Below are positions 3,232-47,327 of a stretch of 64,000 bases of DNA, piece by piece. Made by a program: the position numbers and the translations under genes. The first letter of the stretch is position 1. The number at the start of each line of letters is the position of its first letter. The notes under the pieces are model-generated. The model made no database searches, was not told where the DNA came from, and saw only the letters and a program-made list of their open reading frames with translations. Where the stretch lies: assembly GCA_900316285.1 (NCBI GenBank), contig ONCG01000001.1, forward strand, positions 213,422 to 277,421, in the 5' to 3' direction. This stretch comes from an uncultured Prevotellaceae bacterium (lineage in GTDB: Bacteria > Bacteroidota > Bacteroidia > Bacteroidales > Bacteroidaceae).

Positions 3232-3549
3232 TTTGTTTTGAAAAATTAATTCTGCATGGGGCTGTCATCATGTTCTTCAACGTCCGCACCCGGACATTTA
3301 CTCAACCTTTATACAACTGCCGACTTTCCTCGGCTTTCTCCAGCAAAACGATAAATAAAATGTTGTTTGAATTGTTTCTGTTGAAAATGGTGCTCGGCGG
3401 CCTATGAGCTTTCAAGCGTTAAAGTCCAAGTCTTTTCAGCTTTCCTCCCAACTGAATCGAGTTCCGAAGTTCTGCGTCACGCATGCTTACCAACTCCTCA
3501 ACTTGAATCTTATAAACCGCCGACCACCATCAGCGTTTAGCGCGTCGTC

Positions 3550-3930
3550 TTACTTCTTCTGCTTCGGACGCTTGGCACCATACTTCGAACGGCGCTGGGT
3601 GCGGTTGGCAACACCGGCGGTATCGAGAGTACCGCGAACGATGTGATAACGCACACCGGGGAGATCCTTCACACGACCACCGCGCACCAGCACGATGCTG
3701 TGCTCCTGAAGGTTGTGGCCCTCACCGGGAATGTAGGAGTTCACTTCCTTCTGATTTGTCAGACGAACACGGGCAACCTTACGCATTGCCGAATTAGGCT
3801 TCTTAGGTGTCGTTGTGTAGACGCGCACGCACACGCCACGACGCTGAGGACATGAGTCCAGAGCGGGCGACTTGCTCTTGTCTACGAGCACCTTTCTGCC
3901 TTTTCTTACTAATTGTGAAATAGTAGGCAT
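3550..3930 (-). CDS. rpsL: 30S ribosomal protein S12
   Basis: 126 aa, [13 protein letters not shown]...[18 protein letters not shown]... is the canonical S12 sequence. Confidence 0.98.
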
Positions 3931-4042
3931 AATTTTACTTTTTTTGATTTATATATATTTATTTCGTTTGTTATCAACATTTTACGAAAGTACATATCTC
4001 CCCTATTCCTTACGAAAGGACACAATACGGCATTTCGGGCTG

Positions 4043-4050
4043 CAAAGTTA
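4043..4050 (-). promoter_or_regulatory. Candidate Bacteroidota -7 box (TAACTTTG) for the rpsL operon
   Basis: Plus-strand CAAAGTTA equals TAnnTTTG on the minus strand, 113 nt upstream of the rpsL ATG. Confidence 0.45.
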
Positions 4051-4441
4051 CGAACTTTTCCACAAATACATTAATAAATGCACGATTATTTTTTCGCTAT
4101 CTTAATTATTTAACGAAAAATAACAATTCATGCTTCATAAGAACCGACGTTGCCGAGTATGCTACATGCAAAATCTTGTTGGTCAGCTGCTTTTGAATGC
4201 GATTGCGGGAGTTATCCTGTTTTACCTGATGAAGACAAGTATGCCAAATGAAGCACAGGACTGTGCCTACACCTCTTTTAATATATAGAAAGGCTGCACC
4301 ATTTAATTATATAGAAAGGCTGCACAGCATTGAAAAAGCGAATCTATGTGAATGACACGCGAACAATCCATCACTTCGAGGGATTATTCACGTGTCACAC
4401 TCGCATTCTTCATAGAGAAAAACCTTATGCCGATCGATGCA

Positions 4442-4759
4442 TTAGGCGTCGCCGCGGCCTGTGCCAAACGGAGCAATGGTGCGCTGTGGCTGACCGGGAA
4501 TCTCTATTTTTCCGAACTGCTGCTCATACTTATAGATGTTCTCCTGCAGGGCGCCCAGCAGACGCTTGGCATGTTCGGGAGCCATGATGACACGGCTGCA
4601 AACCTCGGGCTGTTGCATGCCAGGCAGATGGCGTGCGAAGTCGAGGATGAAATCGGTATGTGAGTGAGTGATCAGGGCGAGGTTCGAGTACTCACCTCTT
4701 GCAATCTCAGGTCTGAGATTCAGCTGCAGCTGCTGCTGTGGTTTCTGGTTGTTGTCCAT
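4442..4759 (-). CDS. DUF3467 family protein
   Basis: 105 aa; LNLRPEIARGEYSNLALITHSHTDFILDFA is typical of the DUF3467 family. Confidence 0.8.
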   Translation of the reverse strand: MDNNQKPQQQLQLNLRPEIARGEYSNLALITHSHTDFILDFARHLPGMQQPEVCSRVIMAPEHAKRLLGALQENIYKYEQQFGKIEIPGQPQRTIAPFGTGRGDA

Positions 4760-4793
4760 TGTTGTTCTATGATTTGTTTCGTAATATTTTATG

Positions 4794-4801
4794 CAAAGGT
4801 A
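4794..4801 (-). promoter_or_regulatory. Candidate -7 box (TACCTTTG) for the DUF3467 gene
   Basis: Plus-strand CAAAGGTA, 35 nt upstream of the ATG at 4759. Confidence 0.45.
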
Positions 4802-4931
4802 GTCATTTCTTTATAAACAGTCAAAGAATTGTGGAAAATTAACAATCGGCACGGAAAATGTGGTGCGATTATTTGGTTTTACCCTTGACTTTTTGTAACT
4901 TCGCAGGCAAAATCTAACTTCTATTATTATT

Positions 4932-7325
4932 ATGAAACTGAGAAAAGTCATTTCCATCCTCTCGCTGGCAGCGCTGCTGCTGGCTGTTCCTGCGATGGCA
5001 AACGCTGCTACGACGGCAGCACCGAAAGGCAAGCCAGGCACGTTCACCGTGGGCAAGGGCACATTCCTGCTCAACGGCGAGCCGTTCATCGTGAAGGCTG
5101 CCGAAGTCCACTACCCCCGTATTCCCCGTCCCTACTGGGAGCATCGCATCCAGATGTGCAAGGCGCTAGGCATGAATGCCGTGTGCATCTACATCTTCTG
5201 GAATATCCATGAGCAAAAGGAAGGCCAGTTCGACTTCACTGGCAACAACGACGTGGCAGAGTTCTGCCGCCTGGCACAGAAGAACGGCCTCTATGTCATC
5301 GTGCGTCCCGGTCCCTATGTCTGTGCAGAGTGGGAGATGGGCGGTCTGCCCTGGTGGCTGCTGAAGAAGAAGGATATCCGTCTGCGCGAGCGCGATCCTT
5401 ATTTCATGGAGCGCGTGAAAATATTCGAGGAGAAGGTGGGCGAGCAGTTGAAGCCGCTGACCATCCAGAACGGCGGTCCGATTATCATGATTCAGGTGGA
5501 GAACGAGTACGGAAGCTACGGTGAGGACAAGCCCTACGTCTCGGAGATTCGCGACTGCCTGCGCGGCATCTACGGCAAGGAGCTGTCGCTTTTCCAGTGC
5601 GACTGGTCGAGCAACTTCGAGAAGAACGGCCTTGACGACCTGACATGGACCATGAACTTCGGTACGGGCGCCAACATCGACCAGCAGTTCCGCCGCCTCG
5701 GCGAGTTGCGCCCCGATGCACCAAAGATGTGCTCGGAATTCTGGAGCGGCTGGTTCGACAAGTGGGGAGCCCGCCATGAGACGCGCCCAGCGAAGGATAT
5801 GGTCGACGGTATGGACGAAATGCTGTCGAAGGGCATCAGCTTCTCGCTCTACATGACCCACGGAGGTACTTCCTTCGGCCACTGGGCCGGCGCCAACTCT
5901 CCTGGCTTTGCGCCCGACGTCACCTCGTATGATTACGATGCACCCATCAACGAATACGGTCACACCACACCGAAATTCTTCGAACTGCGCAACATGATGC
6001 AGAAGTACTCGGACAAGAAGCTCCCTGCTGTGCCCAAGGCTCCCGCGCCGATCATCACTGTGCCGAAGTTTGAACTGAAGGAGTTTGCTCCGCTGATGTA
6101 TGCTAATGGCGGTCTGAACACAGATGGCAATGCCGACGACCTTACTTTCGAGGCACACAACTTAGGCTGGGGTTATGCTGCTTATTACACCACGCTGCCC
6201 GAGCTACCCCTTCCGAGTGTGCTCTCAGCCGACTTCCACGACTTTGCCCAGGTATTTATTGACGGCAAGTATATCGGTAAGATTGACCGTGTGAAGAACG
6301 AGAAGAGCCTTACGATTCCACCCACAAAGGCAGGATCATCACTTGTGATTGTGGTCGAGGCAATGGGCCGTATCAACTTTGGACGAGCCATTAAGGACTT
6401 CAAGGGCATCGTCGGCAATGTCACCATTAGCTCGAAGGCTGGTAAACATGACGTTACTTACTCATTAAATGATTGGGAGAAATATTTCATCAACGATGAG
6501 TATGAAACGGCTCTGCTCGCCCTTAAACGAGCATCGGCAACAGAGAACGATGAGTATATAGAAGGTTTCAAAGACGATGCCAAGATGATGGGCGGTCGCG
6601 GCTACTACCGTGGTTACTTCAACCTGAAAAAAGTGGGCGACACGTTCCTTAACTTCGAGACGTGGGGTAAGGGCCAGGTCTACGTGAACGGCCACGCCAT
6701 GGGCCGCATCTGGTCGATAGGCCCGCAGCAGACGCTCTACGTGCCGGGCTGCTGGCTGAAGAAAGGCAAGAACGAAGTGATCGTCCTCGATGTGGTAGGT
6801 CCGAAAGAAACTGTGGTTTGGGGACAGGCTGAGCCAGAGCTAAACAAGCTGCAGTTGGAGAAGTCGAACAAGCACAACAACATCGGCGACAAGCCCGACC
6901 TGAACAGCGCCACGCCCGTGGTGGCTGGAGCCTTCAACGGCGGTAACGGCTGGCAAACTGTGAAGTTCCCGTCGGCAGCCAAAGGCCGCTACCTCGCTAT
7001 CGAAGTGGTTTCCAACCAGGATGGCAAGGACGTCACCGCCATTGCCGAACTCTATCTGCAGGGTACCGATGGTAAGCGTCTGAGCCGCGAGCCGTGGGTC
7101 GCCAAATATGCCGACTCGGAGGAAGAGAATGGTAACCACACACTCGACAAGGTCTATGACCTGCAGGAGTCTACCTACTGGCAGACCGTTCGCGGCGCAA
7201 GCCTCCCCCACCTGATGGTCATCGACCTCGGTTCGGTCCAGACCGTCACGGCGCTGGAGTACCTGCCGCGTGCGGAACAGGGTGCTCCGGGTTCAGCTAA
7301 GAACTATAAGGTTTATTTGTATTAA
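4932..7325 (+). CDS. GH35 beta-galactosidase with a C-terminal F5/8-type-C (discoidin) domain
   Basis: 797 aa with a signal peptide. GH35 hallmarks are present: HYPRIPRPYWEHRI, VRPGPYVCAEWEMGGLPWWL, QVENEYGSYG. The C-terminus is discoidin-like (STYWQT...ALEYLPR). Confidence 0.9.
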   Translation: MKLRKVISILSLAALLLAVPAMANAATTAAPKGKPGTFTVGKGTFLLNGEPFIVKAAEVHYPRIPRPYWEHRIQMCKALGMNAVCIYIFWNIHEQKEGQFDFTGNNDVAEFCRLAQKNGLYVIVRPGPYVCAEWEMGGLPWWLLKKKDIRLRERDPYFMERVKIFEEKVGEQLKPLTIQNGGPIIMIQVENEYGSYGEDKPYVSEIRDCLRGIYGKELSLFQCDWSSNFEKNGLDDLTWTMNFGTGANIDQQFRRLGELRPDAPKMCSEFWSGWFDKWGARHETRPAKDMVDGMDEMLSKGISFSLYMTHGGTSFGHWAGANSPGFAPDVTSYDYDAPINEYGHTTPKFFELRNMMQKYSDKKLPAVPKAPAPIITVPKFELKEFAPLMYANGGLNTDGNADDLTFEAHNLGWGYAAYYTTLPELPLPSVLSADFHDFAQVFIDGKYIGKIDRVKNEKSLTIPPTKAGSSLVIVVEAMGRINFGRAIKDFKGIVGNVTISSKAGKHDVTYSLNDWEKYFINDEYETALLALKRASATENDEYIEGFKDDAKMMGGRGYYRGYFNLKKVGDTFLNFETWGKGQVYVNGHAMGRIWSIGPQQTLYVPGCWLKKGKNEVIVLDVVGPKETVVWGQAEPELNKLQLEKSNKHNNIGDKPDLNSATPVVAGAFNGGNGWQTVKFPSAAKGRYLAIEVVSNQDGKDVTAIAELYLQGTDGKRLSREPWVAKYADSEEENGNHTLDKVYDLQESTYWQTVRGASLPHLMVIDLGSVQTVTALEYLPRAEQGAPGSAKNYKVYLY

Positions 7326-43780: not shown

Positions 43781-44773
43781 ATGGCATTTTTAACTAACGA
43801 CAAACTCGTCATCGTCGGCGCAGCCGGCATGATCGGTTCCAACATGGCTCAGTCGGCTCTGATGATGGGCCTCACGAGCAACCTGTGTCTCTACGACGTG
43901 TTCTCACCCGAAGGCGTAGCTGAGGAAATGCGCCAGAGCGGCTTCGACGAAGCCACCATCACCGCTACCACCGATGCCGAAGAGGCATTCCGCGGAGCTA
44001 AGTACATCATCTCCTCTGGTGGTGCTCCCCGTAAGGAAGGCATGACACGTGAGGACCTGCTCGCAGGCAACTGCAAGATAGCCGAGGAGCTGGGTAAGAA
44101 CATCCAGAAGTTCTGCCCCGACGTGAAGCACGTCGTCATCATCTTCAACCCCGCCGACCTCACCGGCCTCGTCACGCTGCTCTATAGCGGACTGAAACCC
44201 TCACAGGTAACAACCCTCGCTGCCCTCGACACCACTCGTCTGCAGAGCGCACTTGCCAAGAAGTTCGGTGTGAAGCAGAGCGAGATCAAGGGCTGCGCCA
44301 CCTATGGTGGTCACGGCGAGCAGATGGCTGTGTTCGGCTCTCACGTAGAGATTGCCGGTCGCAAGCTCATCGACATCATTGGTACACCTGAGTTCCCCGC
44401 TGAGGAGTGGGAGCAGATGAAGAAGGACGTCACCCAGGGTGGTGCCGCCATCATCAAGTTGCGTGGCCGTTCCAGTTTCCAGAGTCCGTCTTATCTCTCT
44501 GTTGAGATGATTCGTTCGGCTATGGGCGGCGAACCTTTCCGCTTCCCCGTCGGAACCTATGTGAAGACTGACAAATACGACCACATCATGATGGCCATGA
44601 AGACCACCCTCGACGTTACGGGTGCCCACTTCGAAGTGCCTCAGGGTCTGCCCGAGGAGAACGCCAAGCTCGATGCCAGCTATGAGCACCTCTGCAAGAT
44701 GCGCGACGAGCTCGTGACGCTGAACATCGTACCGCCCATCGCTGAGTGGTCGAAGATCAACCCGAACCTGTAA
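43781..44773 (+). CDS. mdh: Malate dehydrogenase (Bacteroidota 330-aa type)
   Basis: Rossmann motif VIVGAAGMIGSNMA. LDH/MDH family blocks are present throughout the length. Confidence 0.85.
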   Translation: MAFLTNDKLVIVGAAGMIGSNMAQSALMMGLTSNLCLYDVFSPEGVAEEMRQSGFDEATITATTDAEEAFRGAKYIISSGGAPRKEGMTREDLLAGNCKIAEELGKNIQKFCPDVKHVVIIFNPADLTGLVTLLYSGLKPSQVTTLAALDTTRLQSALAKKFGVKQSEIKGCATYGGHGEQMAVFGSHVEIAGRKLIDIIGTPEFPAEEWEQMKKDVTQGGAAIIKLRGRSSFQSPSYLSVEMIRSAMGGEPFRFPVGTYVKTDKYDHIMMAMKTTLDVTGAHFEVPQGLPEENAKLDASYEHLCKMRDELVTLNIVPPIAEWSKINPNL

Positions 44774-44806
44774 GCCCCACCCCTGCCCTCCCCTGTAGGG
44801 AGGGGG
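44774..44806 (+). repeat. GC-rich hairpin element copy abutting the mdh stop codon
   Basis: GCCCCACCCC-TGCCCTCCCC-tgta-GGGAGGGG begins at the first base after the TAA (44771-44773). Confidence 0.85.
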
Positions 44807-44830
44807 ATGACAATTAATCATTGACAATTA

Positions 44831-44876
44831 AAAATGCCGTGCGACTCGTTTGAGTGCACGGCATTTTTTGTTTTTA
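44831..44876 (+). terminator. Rho-independent terminator of mdh
   Basis: A 12-bp stem AAAATGCCGTGC (44831-44842) / GCACGGCATTTT (44856-44867) running into TTTTTTGTTTTT. Confidence 0.85.
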
Positions 44877-44945
44877 CTTGAATTACCGAAATAAAATTAC
44901 CGAAAAATAATAATTGATATAAATCTCATAAGCAAACTCCCTCTC

Positions 44946-45303
44946 CTGGAAAGCATTGAGTTCGTGATGCTGGAGCATTGACCTTGTGATGCAAGAGCAT
45001 TGAGGTTGTGGTGCGAGAGCATTGAGGTTGTGGTGCGGGAGCAATGAGTTAGTGAGGCGGGAGCATTGACATTGTTCAGTAAATTAACTTAATTTGTGCA
45101 GTAAATTAACTTAATTTGCGTGGTAAATTAACTTATTTTACTTGGTAAATTAACTTAATTTGCTGAATAAATTAAGTTAATTTACTTTTCAATTTAAGTT
45201 AATTCATGAAAAGGGAGCATTGCTGACGGTTCACGAGACGATTGCTATAGATAAACAAAAGCAATGCTCCACTCAATATAGAGCACTGCTTTACTATGGG
45301 AAA
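44946..45303 (-). repeat. 22-bp phased palindrome array (16 units), locus 3
   Basis: AGCAWTG cores begin at 44952, 44974, 44996, 45018, 45040 and 45062. TAAATTAAcTTAATTT units begin at 45080, 45102, 45124, 45146, 45168 and 45190. AGCA-type cores resume at 45216, 45238, 45260 and 45282. All sit in one 22-bp register. Confidence 0.92.
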
Positions 45304-45355
45304 AACAAAAATAGTAGCAACGATATCGCAGATGGCACAATACCCTCTGCAGTAA

Positions 45356-45553
45356 GACCCCAAAGGGGTCACACTATGGCAACCGCAGGTCTTGACCTGC
45401 GGTGGAAGTAACTACGCAGGGGACGACTTCGAAGATGTCGCACAATAGCACTGTCATTCTTGTTGTGCGACCCCTCTGGGGTCGTAGCCATGTGGATGCC
45501 TTACCACCGCGGGTCAAGACCCGCGGTTACCATAGTGTGACCCCTTTGGGGTC
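45356..45553. other. 198-nt structured module: two inverted ~50-nt copies flanking a hairpin-rich core (candidate ncRNA or MITE)
   Basis: The left arm (45356-45405) matches the reverse complement of the right arm (45500-45553) at about 46 of 50 positions. Each arm holds two local hairpins: GACCCC-nnn-GGGGTC and CCGCrGG-n6-CCyGCGG. The core has stems 45437-45445 / 45463-45471 and 45469-45483. Confidence 0.75.
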
Positions 45554-45589
45554 CTTTCTCGATTCATCGGGGTCCTTTCTCGATTCATC
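45548..45589. repeat. Perfect 21-bp direct repeat, two copies
   Basis: GGGGTCCTTTCTCGATTCATC occurs at 45548-45568 and again at 45569-45589. The first copy starts inside the last hairpin of the structured module. Confidence 0.9.
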
Positions 45590-45611
45590 TTTGTGCCATC
45601 TAATATATTAT

Positions 45612-45697
45612 TAAAAAAAGTTGTCCCTTGTTGTTTGGGTTGTCTTTTTAAAAAACTAATGGTGTTATTTAAAACAACTCAAACAACAAGGGACTAC
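45612..45697 (-). terminator. Long hairpin plus T7 after the GH29 gene
   Basis: AGTTGTCCCTTGTTGTTTGGGTTGT (45619-45643) pairs with ACAACTCAAACAACAAGGGACTAC (45674-45697). On the minus strand the hairpin is followed by TTTTTTT. Confidence 0.7.
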
Positions 45698-45719
45698 TTA
45701 TCGAACTATAGGTCAACGA

Positions 45720-47327
45720 TTACTTGATCTTCAGCACGGGAGCAATCTTGTTGCAGGGGGCAGGGAGTGTGACGACAAGGCCTTCGGCAGTCTGGCGGGC
45801 TTTCACCTTGCCATAACCAAGGAGTGTGACGCTGCCGACCTTGCGGCCATAGGGGTTGCCCTTGCGCAATGACTTGATGACGAGCTTACTATTTTCCGGC
45901 CAACTCATTGCTGTTACATATAGCACACGGCCCTTTTGGTTGAAGCGGATGTCACGATAGTCCATGTTCGAATACTGCCCATCGTTGAAGCCTTGCGCGT
46001 TGAGGGCGATGCTCTTCTCTGCCACAGGACCTTCGCCGAACACCTTCCAGGGGCGTGTGCCGAAGATGCTTTCGCCGTTCACCGTCATCCAAGCCTCGAG
46101 GTCATCGAGCACTACTGCCTCCTTTTCATCATACGTACCATCGGCGCGCAGGGGGATGGAAAGCAACAGGTTACCATTCTTCGACACAATGTCGACCAGC
46201 ATTTTTACTACCTGTGCTGCGCTCTTATACGACCCACGCTCATAGATGCTCGTGTTGTAGTGCCATCCACCAATGCAGTTGCACGTCTGCCAAGGTTCGT
46301 CGACGATGTAGTTTGGTGCTCCACGCTCCACATCCCACGTCAAAGCCTTGCGCTGCTCTTCATCGAGAATCTTACCAAACACCACTGCCCGCGGGTTGCG
46401 GTTATAGAGATGGGTGACTATCTTCAAACCACAATCGCTGATGGCATGGAATGGCAATACCGTTGCATCGAAGTAGATGAGGTCGGGTTGATAGCGATTG
46501 ATGGCATCGAGCGAACGATCGTAGAAATTCGTGACGAACTCCTGCGAGGGAATAGCGGCCCCGTGTGTCCAGTCCCACTGCTGGTGGATGGCTCCATTCC
46601 ACCAAGCCCGCTCGCTCATGGGATGCTGTTGCTGGTAGAGCTGCTGCGGGTCGAAGCCTTCCCACCATTTGCCCTTGCCATCTTCCTTGGTGAGATGACC
46701 ATCGTAGTAGACGCCTGCTTTCGAGCCGTTCAGGTCGTAGCGCTGCGCGGGTTCATACCACGTCCATGCATGATCGGCGTGGAAGGAGATGCCCAACGGC
46801 AGGCCAGCCTTCTTCGCTGCCTTCGCCCACTCGTCGAGGATGTCGCGCTTCGGACCGATGTTCTTCGAGTTCCAGGGCTGATACTTCGAGTCCCAGAGGT
46901 CGTAGTTGTCGTGGTGATTGCCCAGCACGAAGAAATACTGCGCGCCGCAGCGCTTATAGCGTGCGACGAGTTCGTCGGGATTCCATTTCTCTGCCTTGAA
47001 GAGCGGCAGCACATCCTTGAAGCCGAACTCCGAAGGATGGCCGTAGTGCTCGACGTGGTATTTATACTCACGCGTACCTTCCATATACAAAGAGCGGGCC
47101 ATCCAGTCTCCGGAGCCTTCTACGCATTGCGGCCCCCAGTGAGCCCAGATGCCGAACTTCGCGTTGCGAAACCACTCGGGTGTCTGATGCTGGCTGAGCG
47201 ACTGCCATGTAGGTTGATACTTGCCCGTCTGCATCGGCTCGTGAGCCTCCGACACAGGCACTTGGTACTGCTGCGCCGAGACCGTCAGGCTCAAGGCGAG
47301 AAGCAGGGTTGTGATGGTTGCTTTCAT
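45720..47327 (-). CDS. GH29 alpha-L-fucosidase
   Basis: 535 aa with a signal peptide. WFRNAKFGIWAHWGPQ, YFFVLGNHHDNYDLWDS and ISFHADHAW are GH29 blocks. Confidence 0.88.
   Translation of the reverse strand: MKATITTLLLALSLTVSAQQYQVPVSEAHEPMQTGKYQPTWQSLSQHQTPEWFRNAKFGIWAHWGPQCVEGSGDWMARSLYMEGTREYKYHVEHYGHPSEFGFKDVLPLFKAEKWNPDELVARYKRCGAQYFFVLGNHHDNYDLWDSKYQPWNSKNIGPKRDILDEWAKAAKKAGLPLGISFHADHAWTWYEPAQRYDLNGSKAGVYYDGHLTKEDGKGKWWEGFDPQQLYQQQHPMSERAWWNGAIHQQWDWTHGAAIPSQEFVTNFYDRSLDAINRYQPDLIYFDATVLPFHAISDCGLKIVTHLYNRNPRAVVFGKILDEEQRKALTWDVERGAPNYIVDEPWQTCNCIGGWHYNTSIYERGSYKSAAQVVKMLVDIVSKNGNLLLSIPLRADGTYDEKEAVVLDDLEAWMTVNGESIFGTRPWKVFGEGPVAEKSIALNAQGFNDGQYSNMDYRDIRFNQKGRVLYVTAMSWPENSKLVIKSLRKGNPYGRKVGSVTLLGYGKVKARQTAEGLVVTLPAPCNKIAPVLKIK

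Follow-up and report, generated by a model that had tools for sequence, protein, structure and literature searches.

A probable IS1595-derived MITE with hairpins kept by paired mutations, in the gap where the mdh and fucosidase genes of a rumen Prevotella converge

The DNA analysed here is a stretch of 64,000 nucleotides from an uncultured Prevotellaceae bacterium (assembly GCA_900316285.1, contig ONCG01000001.1, positions 213,422 to 277,421 of the forward strand), which is called the window below and supplies all coordinates that are not assigned to another locus. It is chromosomal DNA of a rumen Prevotella, and its genes include rpoB/rpoC, a cluster of tRNAs, and glycosidases of families GH97 and GH29. 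An identical stretch is contained in a cattle-rumen metagenome scaffold, and the members of the 90%-identity cluster of a window protein are labelled Prevotella sp. by their sources. The malate dehydrogenase gene mdh (43781-44773, + strand; Pfam Ldh_1_N and Ldh_1_C), which is followed by a terminator hairpin at 44829-44866, and a GH29 alpha-L-fucosidase gene (45720-47327, - strand; Pfam Alpha_L_fucos, 7e-86) are convergent, and their 3' ends face each other across a gap of 946 bp that is repeat-rich throughout. A hairpin-rich module sits in this gap, and the segment 45316-45613 that encloses it is very probably a MITE (miniature inverted-repeat transposable element) derived from the IS1595 family. 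Plasmid and phage collections gave no match to the region by megablast, and plasmid or phage iterons or a replication origin were dropped as candidates because the surroundings are chromosomal.

A preliminary description of this DNA had reported a 198-nt module at 45356-45553 with two inverted arms, local hairpins, a 9-bp stem and a repeat of 2x21 bp, and every one of these is present at its place. The module is real, but its span was drawn too narrowly, as the element extends over 45316-45613 (+/-2 nt), or about 298 bp. The arms (45356-45405 and 45504-45553) are 50 nt each, 94% complementary, and separated by 98 nt. The module is the interior of the element and consists of a nested palindrome of short G+C-rich hairpins, all given here for the + strand. 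The terminal hairpins T1 (GACCCC-AAA-GGGGTC, 45356-45370) and T1' (GACCCC-TTT-GGGGTC, 45539-45553) and the hairpin H3R (GACCCC-TCT-GGGGTC, 45469-45483) were obtained in both repeat and motif searches. The repeat search also gives H2L (ACCGCAGGTC-TT-GACCTGCGGT, 45382-45403, the A-T version), H2R (ACCGCGGGTC-AA-GACCCGCGGT, 45506-45527, the G-C version), and the central stem-loop S4 (GCACAA(T)...(G)TTGTGC, 45440-45468) with its 17-nt loop. The degenerate hairpin H3L (GACTTC-GAA-GATGTC, 45425-45439) has one T.T mismatch and is the most conserved stretch of the core. H2L and H2R are perfect 10+2+10 palindromes (45382-45391/45394-45403 in the left arm and 45506-45515/45518-45527 in the right arm), and the 9-bp stem pairs GTCGCACAA at 45437-45445 with TTGTGCGAC at 45463-45471. 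The sequence GACCCCnnnGGGGTC occurs three times in the 64 kb, every time inside the module, with 0.07 occurrences expected.

The two arms differ at three positions. The differences at 45387 (A vs G) and 45398 (T vs C) together swap an A-T for a G-C pair within the local hairpin, and the one at 45380 (C vs T) is a linker position. The earlier title, by which the arms differ only in hairpin-preserving double substitutions, is borne out for the first two differences and slightly overstated because the third falls in the linker; the text beneath that title, which ascribes the pair swap to two of the differences, is right. The whole element folds as one long hairpin, with a minimum free energy of -166 kcal/mol as RNA (z = -13.6) and -86 kcal/mol as DNA (z = -12.3). 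Any long palindrome gives a high z-score automatically, and the fold therefore does not discriminate between local and long-stem structures.

About 20 distinct homologous modules occur at unrelated intergenic sites in several rumen and gut Prevotella genomes. A stringent arm pattern retrieved one more copy, in opposite orientation and a different context, from another Prevotellaceae metagenome-assembled genome (MAG), and looser patterns retrieved full-length homologues from the Prevotella MAGs RGIG8062, RUG12665 (at least 6 loci) and UBA6994. Searching metagenome contigs for the conserved core (GACTTCGAAGATGTCGCACA), which is the H3L stretch and is invariant in most copies, added 27 loci and completes the total of about 20 distinct modules; in IMG/VR, the core pattern was not found. 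Locus L122 was dropped as a length variant, as it merely contains a run of N from a gap in the scaffold. Every copy that was examined is intergenic, and the copies lie in both orientations and in convergent, divergent and tandem gene contexts. Word depth across the module in rumen metagenomes is 5-10x that of the flanks. A sister family comprises 26 distinct units, of which 25 are in the human-gut MAG UMGS580 and one in UMGS868. The UMGS580 copies occur singly, as inverted pairs and as tandems, and many stand at contig ends. The literature search found no paper carrying the sequences of the element. Bulk MITE catalogues for Bacteroidota exist (PMC11602168) and may already list this family anonymously.

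Homology between copies runs past the terminal hairpins to terminal inverted repeats (TIRs) of about 25 bp with the family consensus GGGAAYGATATACCTGTTGRCACAA. The left TIR of the window copy, AGCAACGATATCGCAGATGGCACAA (45316-45340, + strand), aligns with this consensus and with loci L156, L178 and L246 (GGCAATGATATAGCAGATGGCACAA). The right TIR (45590-45613, - strand; reverse complement TAATAATATATTAGATGGCACAAA), whose outer end is degenerate, aligns with the right ends of L156, L164 and L239. The inner part of the window TIRs is returned by the repeat search as an 18-nt inverted repeat, and the window-type TIR reads GGSAAYGATATMGCAGATGGCACAA. From the left TIR to the terminal hairpin runs spacer a (TACCCTCTGCAGTAA, 45341-45355, + strand), which is conserved in L156, L178 and L227.

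Directly outside the TIRs lie 8-bp direct repeats, the target-site duplications (TSDs). Those of the window copy are AAAATAGT (45308-45315) and AAAAAAGT (45614-45621), identical at 7/8 positions, and those at other loci include TACCAATA (L167), TTAGTTTT (L156), TATTGGTA (L220), TTTTTTAT (L241) and TAATGGGA (L201). Among elements with these TIRs, the flanking 8-mers are perfect in 8/15 and agree at >=7/8 positions in 13/15, against 0/300 and 1/300 in offset controls with a mean of 2.5/8. The target 8-mers are varied and A/T-rich.

The empty site is found in L249 and L250, rumen scaffolds that encode fucosidase variants of the same 90%-identity cluster. In both, 44701-45311 and 45614-45800 of the window are contiguous, with the flanks and the upstream arrays the same as in the window; 45311 joins 45614 directly, and the site reads ...GGAAAAC AAAAAAGT TGTCCC..., which includes the right TSD. 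The MITE-less junction 45311/45614 is also present in contigs of runs X25 and X26. These junctions mark the element as a precise, lineage-specific insertion. More distant relatives also lack the module and have an LRR_5 gene in the gap (L145 and L149) or a gap of 103 bp only (L251).

The parent transposon is indicated by a terminal-repeat scan of IMG/VR, which gave 31 loci. In L202 (2277 bp, flanked by the perfect TSD AATAATAA) and L205 (3087 bp, TSD 7/8), the inverted repeats enclose an open reading frame (ORF) with DDE_Tnp_IS1595 (3e-44 and 9e-46) and Zn_ribbon_IS1595 domains, which scores 207-211 bits as an NCBIfam IS1595 family transposase against a cutoff of 75. The transposase gene lies about 240 nt inside the TIR at six loci, namely these two and L189, L203, L191 and L193, where one terminal repeat each was detected. 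The same TIRs bound short elements with unrelated interiors, L201 (165 bp), L217 (557 bp) and L246 (524 bp), the last of which carries the TIR subtype of the window. Non-coding elements of this kind span 165-557 bp. Passenger ORFs are also found between the same ends, in L214 and in L195 (an LRR_5 ORF). A solved structure of a relative of the transposase was sought and none was found. ISApl4, a member of the IS1595 family, generates A/T-rich 8-bp direct repeats (PMC12561309).

The TIRs, the 8-bp TSDs, the empty site, and the TIRs common to elements with an IS1595 transposase assign the window element to an IS1595-derived MITE and not to IS200/IS605. The preliminary description had named a non-autonomous mobile element without a transposase nearby as one of its candidates and had advised looking for further genomic copies and for polymorphism at the insertion site. 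Both were found, and together with the lack of a transposase gene in the window they agree with that view. Its IS200/IS605-style mechanism for a hairpin-ended element is not supported, given the TIRs of about 25 bp, the 8-bp TSDs, and the ends common to IS1595 elements of the DDE type. The MITE family is new, the IS family is a known one, and the element is of an ordinary kind. It is unusual only in its internal hairpins, which are kept intact by paired mutations. In the likely mode of movement, an IS1595 transposase supplied by an autonomous copy elsewhere in the cell would bind the TIRs, and, acting in trans, it would insert the element at staggered 8-bp cuts.

The paired mutations were examined in alignment A2, which comprises 20 modules, for seven local helices (T1, H2L, H3L, S4, H3R, H2R and T1'). 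In the local-hairpin structure 93.2% of the cells are paired, and double changes occur at 8 pair positions in 18 cells. These values are reached by 0/500 shuffles, and slid controls are 36-43% paired. T1 is GACCCC/GGGGTC in 6/20 copies and GACCTC/GAGGTC in 14/20, never mixed and 100% paired; GACCTC-nnn-GAGGTC represents a compensatory change from C-G to T-A. At the H2L pair 33/44, 16 copies have AU, 3 have GC and 1 has GU, and the H2R pairs 206/217 and 203/220 are AU in 16 and GC in 4, and CG in 19 and UA in 1, respectively. The A-T/G-C alternative arises in H2L and independently in H2R, and the sister strain L140 has a G.T intermediate in H2L. In L001 and L160, H3L is a perfect GCCCCC/GGGGTC or GACCTC/GAGGTC hairpin. 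S4 has 88% of its cells paired, with a T.G wobble at pair 98/153 in 12/20 copies on this strand only. H3R and T1' are each 99% paired, H3R with one double change from A-T to T-A (L229). The other double changes are C-G to A-T (L221) and C-G to T-A (L228 and L229).

Pairing from arm to arm amounts to 89.2% overall and breaks at exactly the positions of the local compensatory changes. Pair 11/285 is unpaired in 13/20 copies, and pairs 33/217 and 44/206 are unpaired in 3 copies each. In the UMGS580 family, H2 is extended by a hypervariable stem that has 10 pairs with compensatory changes and at least 3 unrelated stem sequences. The view that selection acts on the local stem-loops and not on the pairing of the arms, put forward earlier from the single window copy, is supported at the family level by the 20-copy covariation, which speaks for selection or at least for strong maintenance. 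As a separate observation, the extended H2 stems of UMGS580 (L015, L079, L081 and L123-L139) are all paired and are capped by GCGAAGC or GCGTAGC, the very stable d(GCGNAGC) mini-hairpin.

Between its terminal palindromes, the interior of the element has apparently inverted. In runs X25 and X29, which are near-identical strains, contigs join the reverse complement of 45569-45649 to 45362-45437, with a shared 6 nt (GGGGTC/GACCCC) at the junction of 45362 and 45569. With respect to the right flank of this locus, the whole module thus stands in reverse, and the inverted variant has a single copy of the 21-mer. Spacers a (TACCCTCYGCAGTAA) and b (AGATGAATCGAGAAAG) are asymmetric, and relative to them the core has the same orientation in the window and L156 and the opposite one in L239, where spacer a is on the other side of the core. 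The terminal hairpins are palindromes and are both direct and inverted repeats of each other, and inversion as well as deletion is therefore possible. Junctions of 45402 to 45505 on opposite strands were discarded, as a contig assigned to the wrong arm can produce them. The 2x21-bp perfect direct repeat (45548-45589, + strand) consists of GGGGTC and spacer b (CTTTCTCGATTCATC). It is confined to the window lineage, is a single copy in L156, and carries the same T>C change in both copies in L140. It is a lineage-specific tandem duplication that lies outside the design of the element.

The hairpins are dispensable for recognition by the transposase, because the same ends bound MITEs with unrelated interiors. 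The restriction of G.U-type wobbles to one strand, at pair 98/153 (12/20) and in further cases in L140 and L241, weakly suggests a single functional strand, which is the + strand of the window. The preferred reading, which has about an even chance of being correct, is that the hairpins act in single-stranded form, most likely on read-through RNA, where they would serve in termination, insulation or 3'-end protection of the transcripts. Stem-loops that stop or stabilise transcripts would make insertions harmless. A similar role at the transcript level has been proposed for REP, ERIC, Correia and bcr1 elements. Alternative roles are an aid to the synapsis of the ends in transposition, or maintenance without selection. 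At the gathering threshold, Rfam 15 matched only tRNAs in the window. Under permissive settings it gave sub-threshold matches of the microRNA-precursor type, such as any long hairpin gives, which are due to the inverted repeat at 45618-45699, and there was no Rfam match at 10 related loci. The promoter and terminator scan found no promoter in the element by the sigma-70 consensus, from which Bacteroidota promoters differ.

Several points weigh against an IS1595-derived MITE whose hairpins act on read-through RNA. The right TIR of the window copy is degenerate and its TSD is imperfect, and the boundaries of the element are good to +/-2 nt only, because of A-runs. An IS1595 transposase is absent from the 64-kb window and none is shown in the same genome; the genome loci fetched yielded no autonomous element. 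The autonomous elements are on IMG/VR contigs, and their TIR (GGGAACGATATACCTGTTGGCA...) differs from that of the window at about 6/25 positions. The copies are related by descent and may exchange whole hairpins, which makes the number of independent compensatory events uncertain, and two adjacent changes in L140 resemble a conversion tract from the other arm. In Logan contigs, which hold no strand information, runs labelled as RNA do not differ from DNA runs in their repeat-driven depth ratios, and the reverse-transcription PCR (RT-PCR) metatranscriptome X37 covers the 3' end of mdh and not the element.

Other explanations of the locus differ in what they make of the same features. The strong predicted fold (RNA -166 kcal/mol, z = -13.6), the compensatory changes in the local stems, and the wobbles on one strand only (pair 98/153, UG 12/20; L140) are consistent with a stand-alone gene for a structured non-coding RNA, either a small RNA or a cis-regulatory RNA, with its stems under selection, which was one of the original candidates. 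Such a gene is nevertheless very unlikely. Neither strand belongs to an Rfam family, no transcript signal is separable from DNA, and the scan for the sigma-70 consensus, from which promoters of Bacteroidota depart, found no promoter. The high z-score comes automatically with a long palindrome, the TIRs, TSDs and precise empty site denote movement as DNA, and the copies lie in both orientations and in convergent, divergent and tandem contexts. An inverton, a DNA switch in which the 50-nt arms would be recombination sites and a flip of the core would change the expression of neighbouring genes, would fit the inverted module at this locus in the near-identical strains X25 and X29 and the two core orientations among copies (window and L156 vs L239). 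However, the neighbouring genes point their 3' ends at the element, the core contains no promoter-like sequence by the sigma-70 consensus (a consensus that Bacteroidota do not share), and no recombinase gene is adjacent, the neighbours being mdh, the fucosidase gene and GH97. General recombination or template switching is expected to invert the segment between 50-nt inverted repeats, and the evidence for inversion comes from contigs and not from reads within one population. A switch is very unlikely. Hardly credible is the idea that a Y1 HUH transposase moves a hairpin-ended element here as single-stranded DNA, be it an IS200/IS605 PATE or a REP/BIME with its RAYT. The perfect subterminal hairpins, the recurrence of the motif GACCCCnnnGGGGTC(G/A)CAC in many Bacteroidota repeats, the single, inverted-pair and tandem units of UMGS580, which are like BIMEs, and the GTAG after the H3R hairpin recall such elements. 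In contrast, IS200/IS605 and REP elements have no TIRs or target duplication, both of which are statistically clear here, and the ends are common to DDE elements of the IS1595 family. No Y1 transposase lies beside any copy, though no systematic search was made.

Two further explanations accept the MITE and concern its hairpins. The stems may be unselected, and the units may arise as palindromes and then be kept perfect by intrastrand templated repair or by the exchange of whole hairpin cassettes among copies; this is somewhat unlikely. The A-T/G-C alternative lies in H2L of some copies and in H2R of others like two shuffled alleles, the two adjacent changes in L140 bring the left arm closer to the right like a conversion tract, UMGS580 copies that hardly differ elsewhere have 3 or more unrelated stem alleles at a single position, and both copies of the 21-mer changed together. 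However, double changes at 8 pair positions stand against 4 single broken cells at inner stem positions that do not vary otherwise. A fixed T.T mismatch and frayed pairs at the stem ends are also present, wobble intermediates exist, and no such repair process is established for stems of 6-8 bp. A less probable explanation, and a doubtful one, is that the hairpin cassette is more than filler and is a strand-specific functional module, namely a structured RNA or a single-stranded DNA that is bound by a protein of the host or of the element, which would hitch-hike in IS1595 MITEs, be related to the GACCCCnnnGGGGTC(G/A)CAC repeats of Bacteroidota, and flip at the terminal palindromes. If true, Bacteroidota would have a REP-like system that travels on a DDE transposon.

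IS1595-family insertion sequences are reportedly the subject of work by Siguier, Gagnevin and Chandler from 2009. The window element resembles members of this family such as ISApl4 in its TIRs, which are common to elements with DDE_Tnp_IS1595 and zinc-ribbon domains, in its A/T-rich 8-bp target duplications (PMC12561309), and in having relatives with passenger ORFs (L202, L205, L214 and L195). In contrast to the autonomous elements, it is a MITE without transposase, and its interior, a nested palindrome made up of G+C-rich hairpins, is unrelated. The autonomous IS1595 elements found here have A/T-rich terminator-like hairpins near their ends and not the palindrome of the MITE.

Structured MITEs of other bacteria include Correia/NEMIS in Neisseria, ERIC/IRU in enterobacteria, RUP/BOX in pneumococcus and bcr1 in the Bacillus cereus group. 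These elements form stable stem-loops when transcribed, and compensatory base changes have been reported for bcr1. The window family is similar to them in being small, intergenic and multi-copy, and in having TIRs, TSDs and modular insertion variants. It differs in host phylum and parent IS family, in conserving the local hairpins and not an end-to-end stem, and in being known here from DNA alone. REP/BIME sequences are likewise short G+C-rich intergenic palindromes that occur singly, as inverted pairs and in clusters, with compensatory changes in their stems. However, REPs lack TIRs and TSDs and are tied to Y1 transposases (RAYT), whereas the window element carries TIRs as well as TSDs, and its link is to a DDE transposase; its GTAG stands 3' of H3R and not 5', and it does not qualify as a REP/RAYT element, though RAYT genes were not sought systematically. 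IS200/IS605 PATEs are also non-autonomous with conspicuous subterminal hairpins, but they have no TIRs or TSDs and insert beside a fixed tetra- or pentanucleotide, whereas the targets of the window family are varied. The BrickBuilt minisatellite-MITE of Porphyromonas gingivalis (PMC4596501) is, like the window element, an intergenic MITE of Bacteroidales. The 22-bp-period arrays at 44947-45198 recall its 23-nt bricks, a likeness by description only (PMC4596501), but these arrays lie outside the window MITE and are present in the MITE-less L249 and L250.

With these assignments, an orphan candidate for a structured RNA becomes an annotated mobile element, and a MITE family is defined by its ends, its target duplication, its parent IS family, and its host range in rumen and gut Prevotella. 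MITEs of this type break MAG assemblies, as in UMGS580 with its many copies at contig ends, and they mark polymorphism at the strain level. The family is also a natural experiment on the conservation of short hairpins inside MITEs. Hairpin-rich, hairpin-free and gene-carrying interiors all occur between the same ends, which makes what the hairpins contribute to transposition, transcript termination or stability directly testable.

The remainder of the gap contains further repeats. About six 22-bp units with AGCATTG occupy 44947-45070, directly after the mdh terminator, and the sister species L145 and L149 have a related 22-bp array at the same place. Six 15-bp palindromes AAATTAA[C/G]TTAATTT follow at 45079-45198 with an exact spacing of 22 bp, the first four having C at the centre and the last two G. 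These palindromes reach a word depth of about 100x that of the flanks in rumen metagenomes, vary in copy number between strains, are present in the MITE-less L249 and L250, and are absent in L251. They represent a repeat element of their own, of very high abundance, or a putative protein-binding array. The upstream 22-bp arrays were rejected as part of the MITE because they are retained in MITE-less alleles. On the other side, directly downstream of the fucosidase gene, a 29-nt inverted repeat (45618-45699) is 90% complementary and A/T-rich and is kept in L249 and L250; it is probably the terminator of that gene.

Arrays also adjoin other copies of the MITE. L001 has four copies of TACCACGGCCTGGTAA and one inverted copy at 4378-4476 with 22-bp spacing, and L160 has arrays of GC-rich hairpins of about 21 nt at 5050-5150 and 5360-5500, near a MITE copy. 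CCTATCA/CACCTA microsatellites lie beside MITE copies in L167 (3555-3620) and at UMGS580 loci. The GACCCCnnnGGGGTC(G/A)CAC hairpin is present in other Bacteroidota, including Spirosoma, Chitinophagaceae, Cyclobacteriaceae and Flavobacteriales (L059, L067, L102, L106, L073, L060, L003 and L057). There it occurs in pairs at a distance of about 50 nt, separated by a gtttatag...ctataaac stem, as well as in long tandem arrays, of which the one in L057 has a 167-bp period. These repeats of other Bacteroidota belong to no Rfam family, and a hairpin motif common to so many of them hints at a common constraint. In L195, TIRs of the IS1595 type at 3490-5079 enclose an LRR_5 (BspA-like) ORF and show no clear TSD. 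An LRR_5 gene also occupies the gap between the fucosidase gene and mdh in the sister species (L145, 4454-5629; L149, 4469-5644), and the L145 spacer includes the TIR-like end ...GGACAGACAGATGATATCATT.

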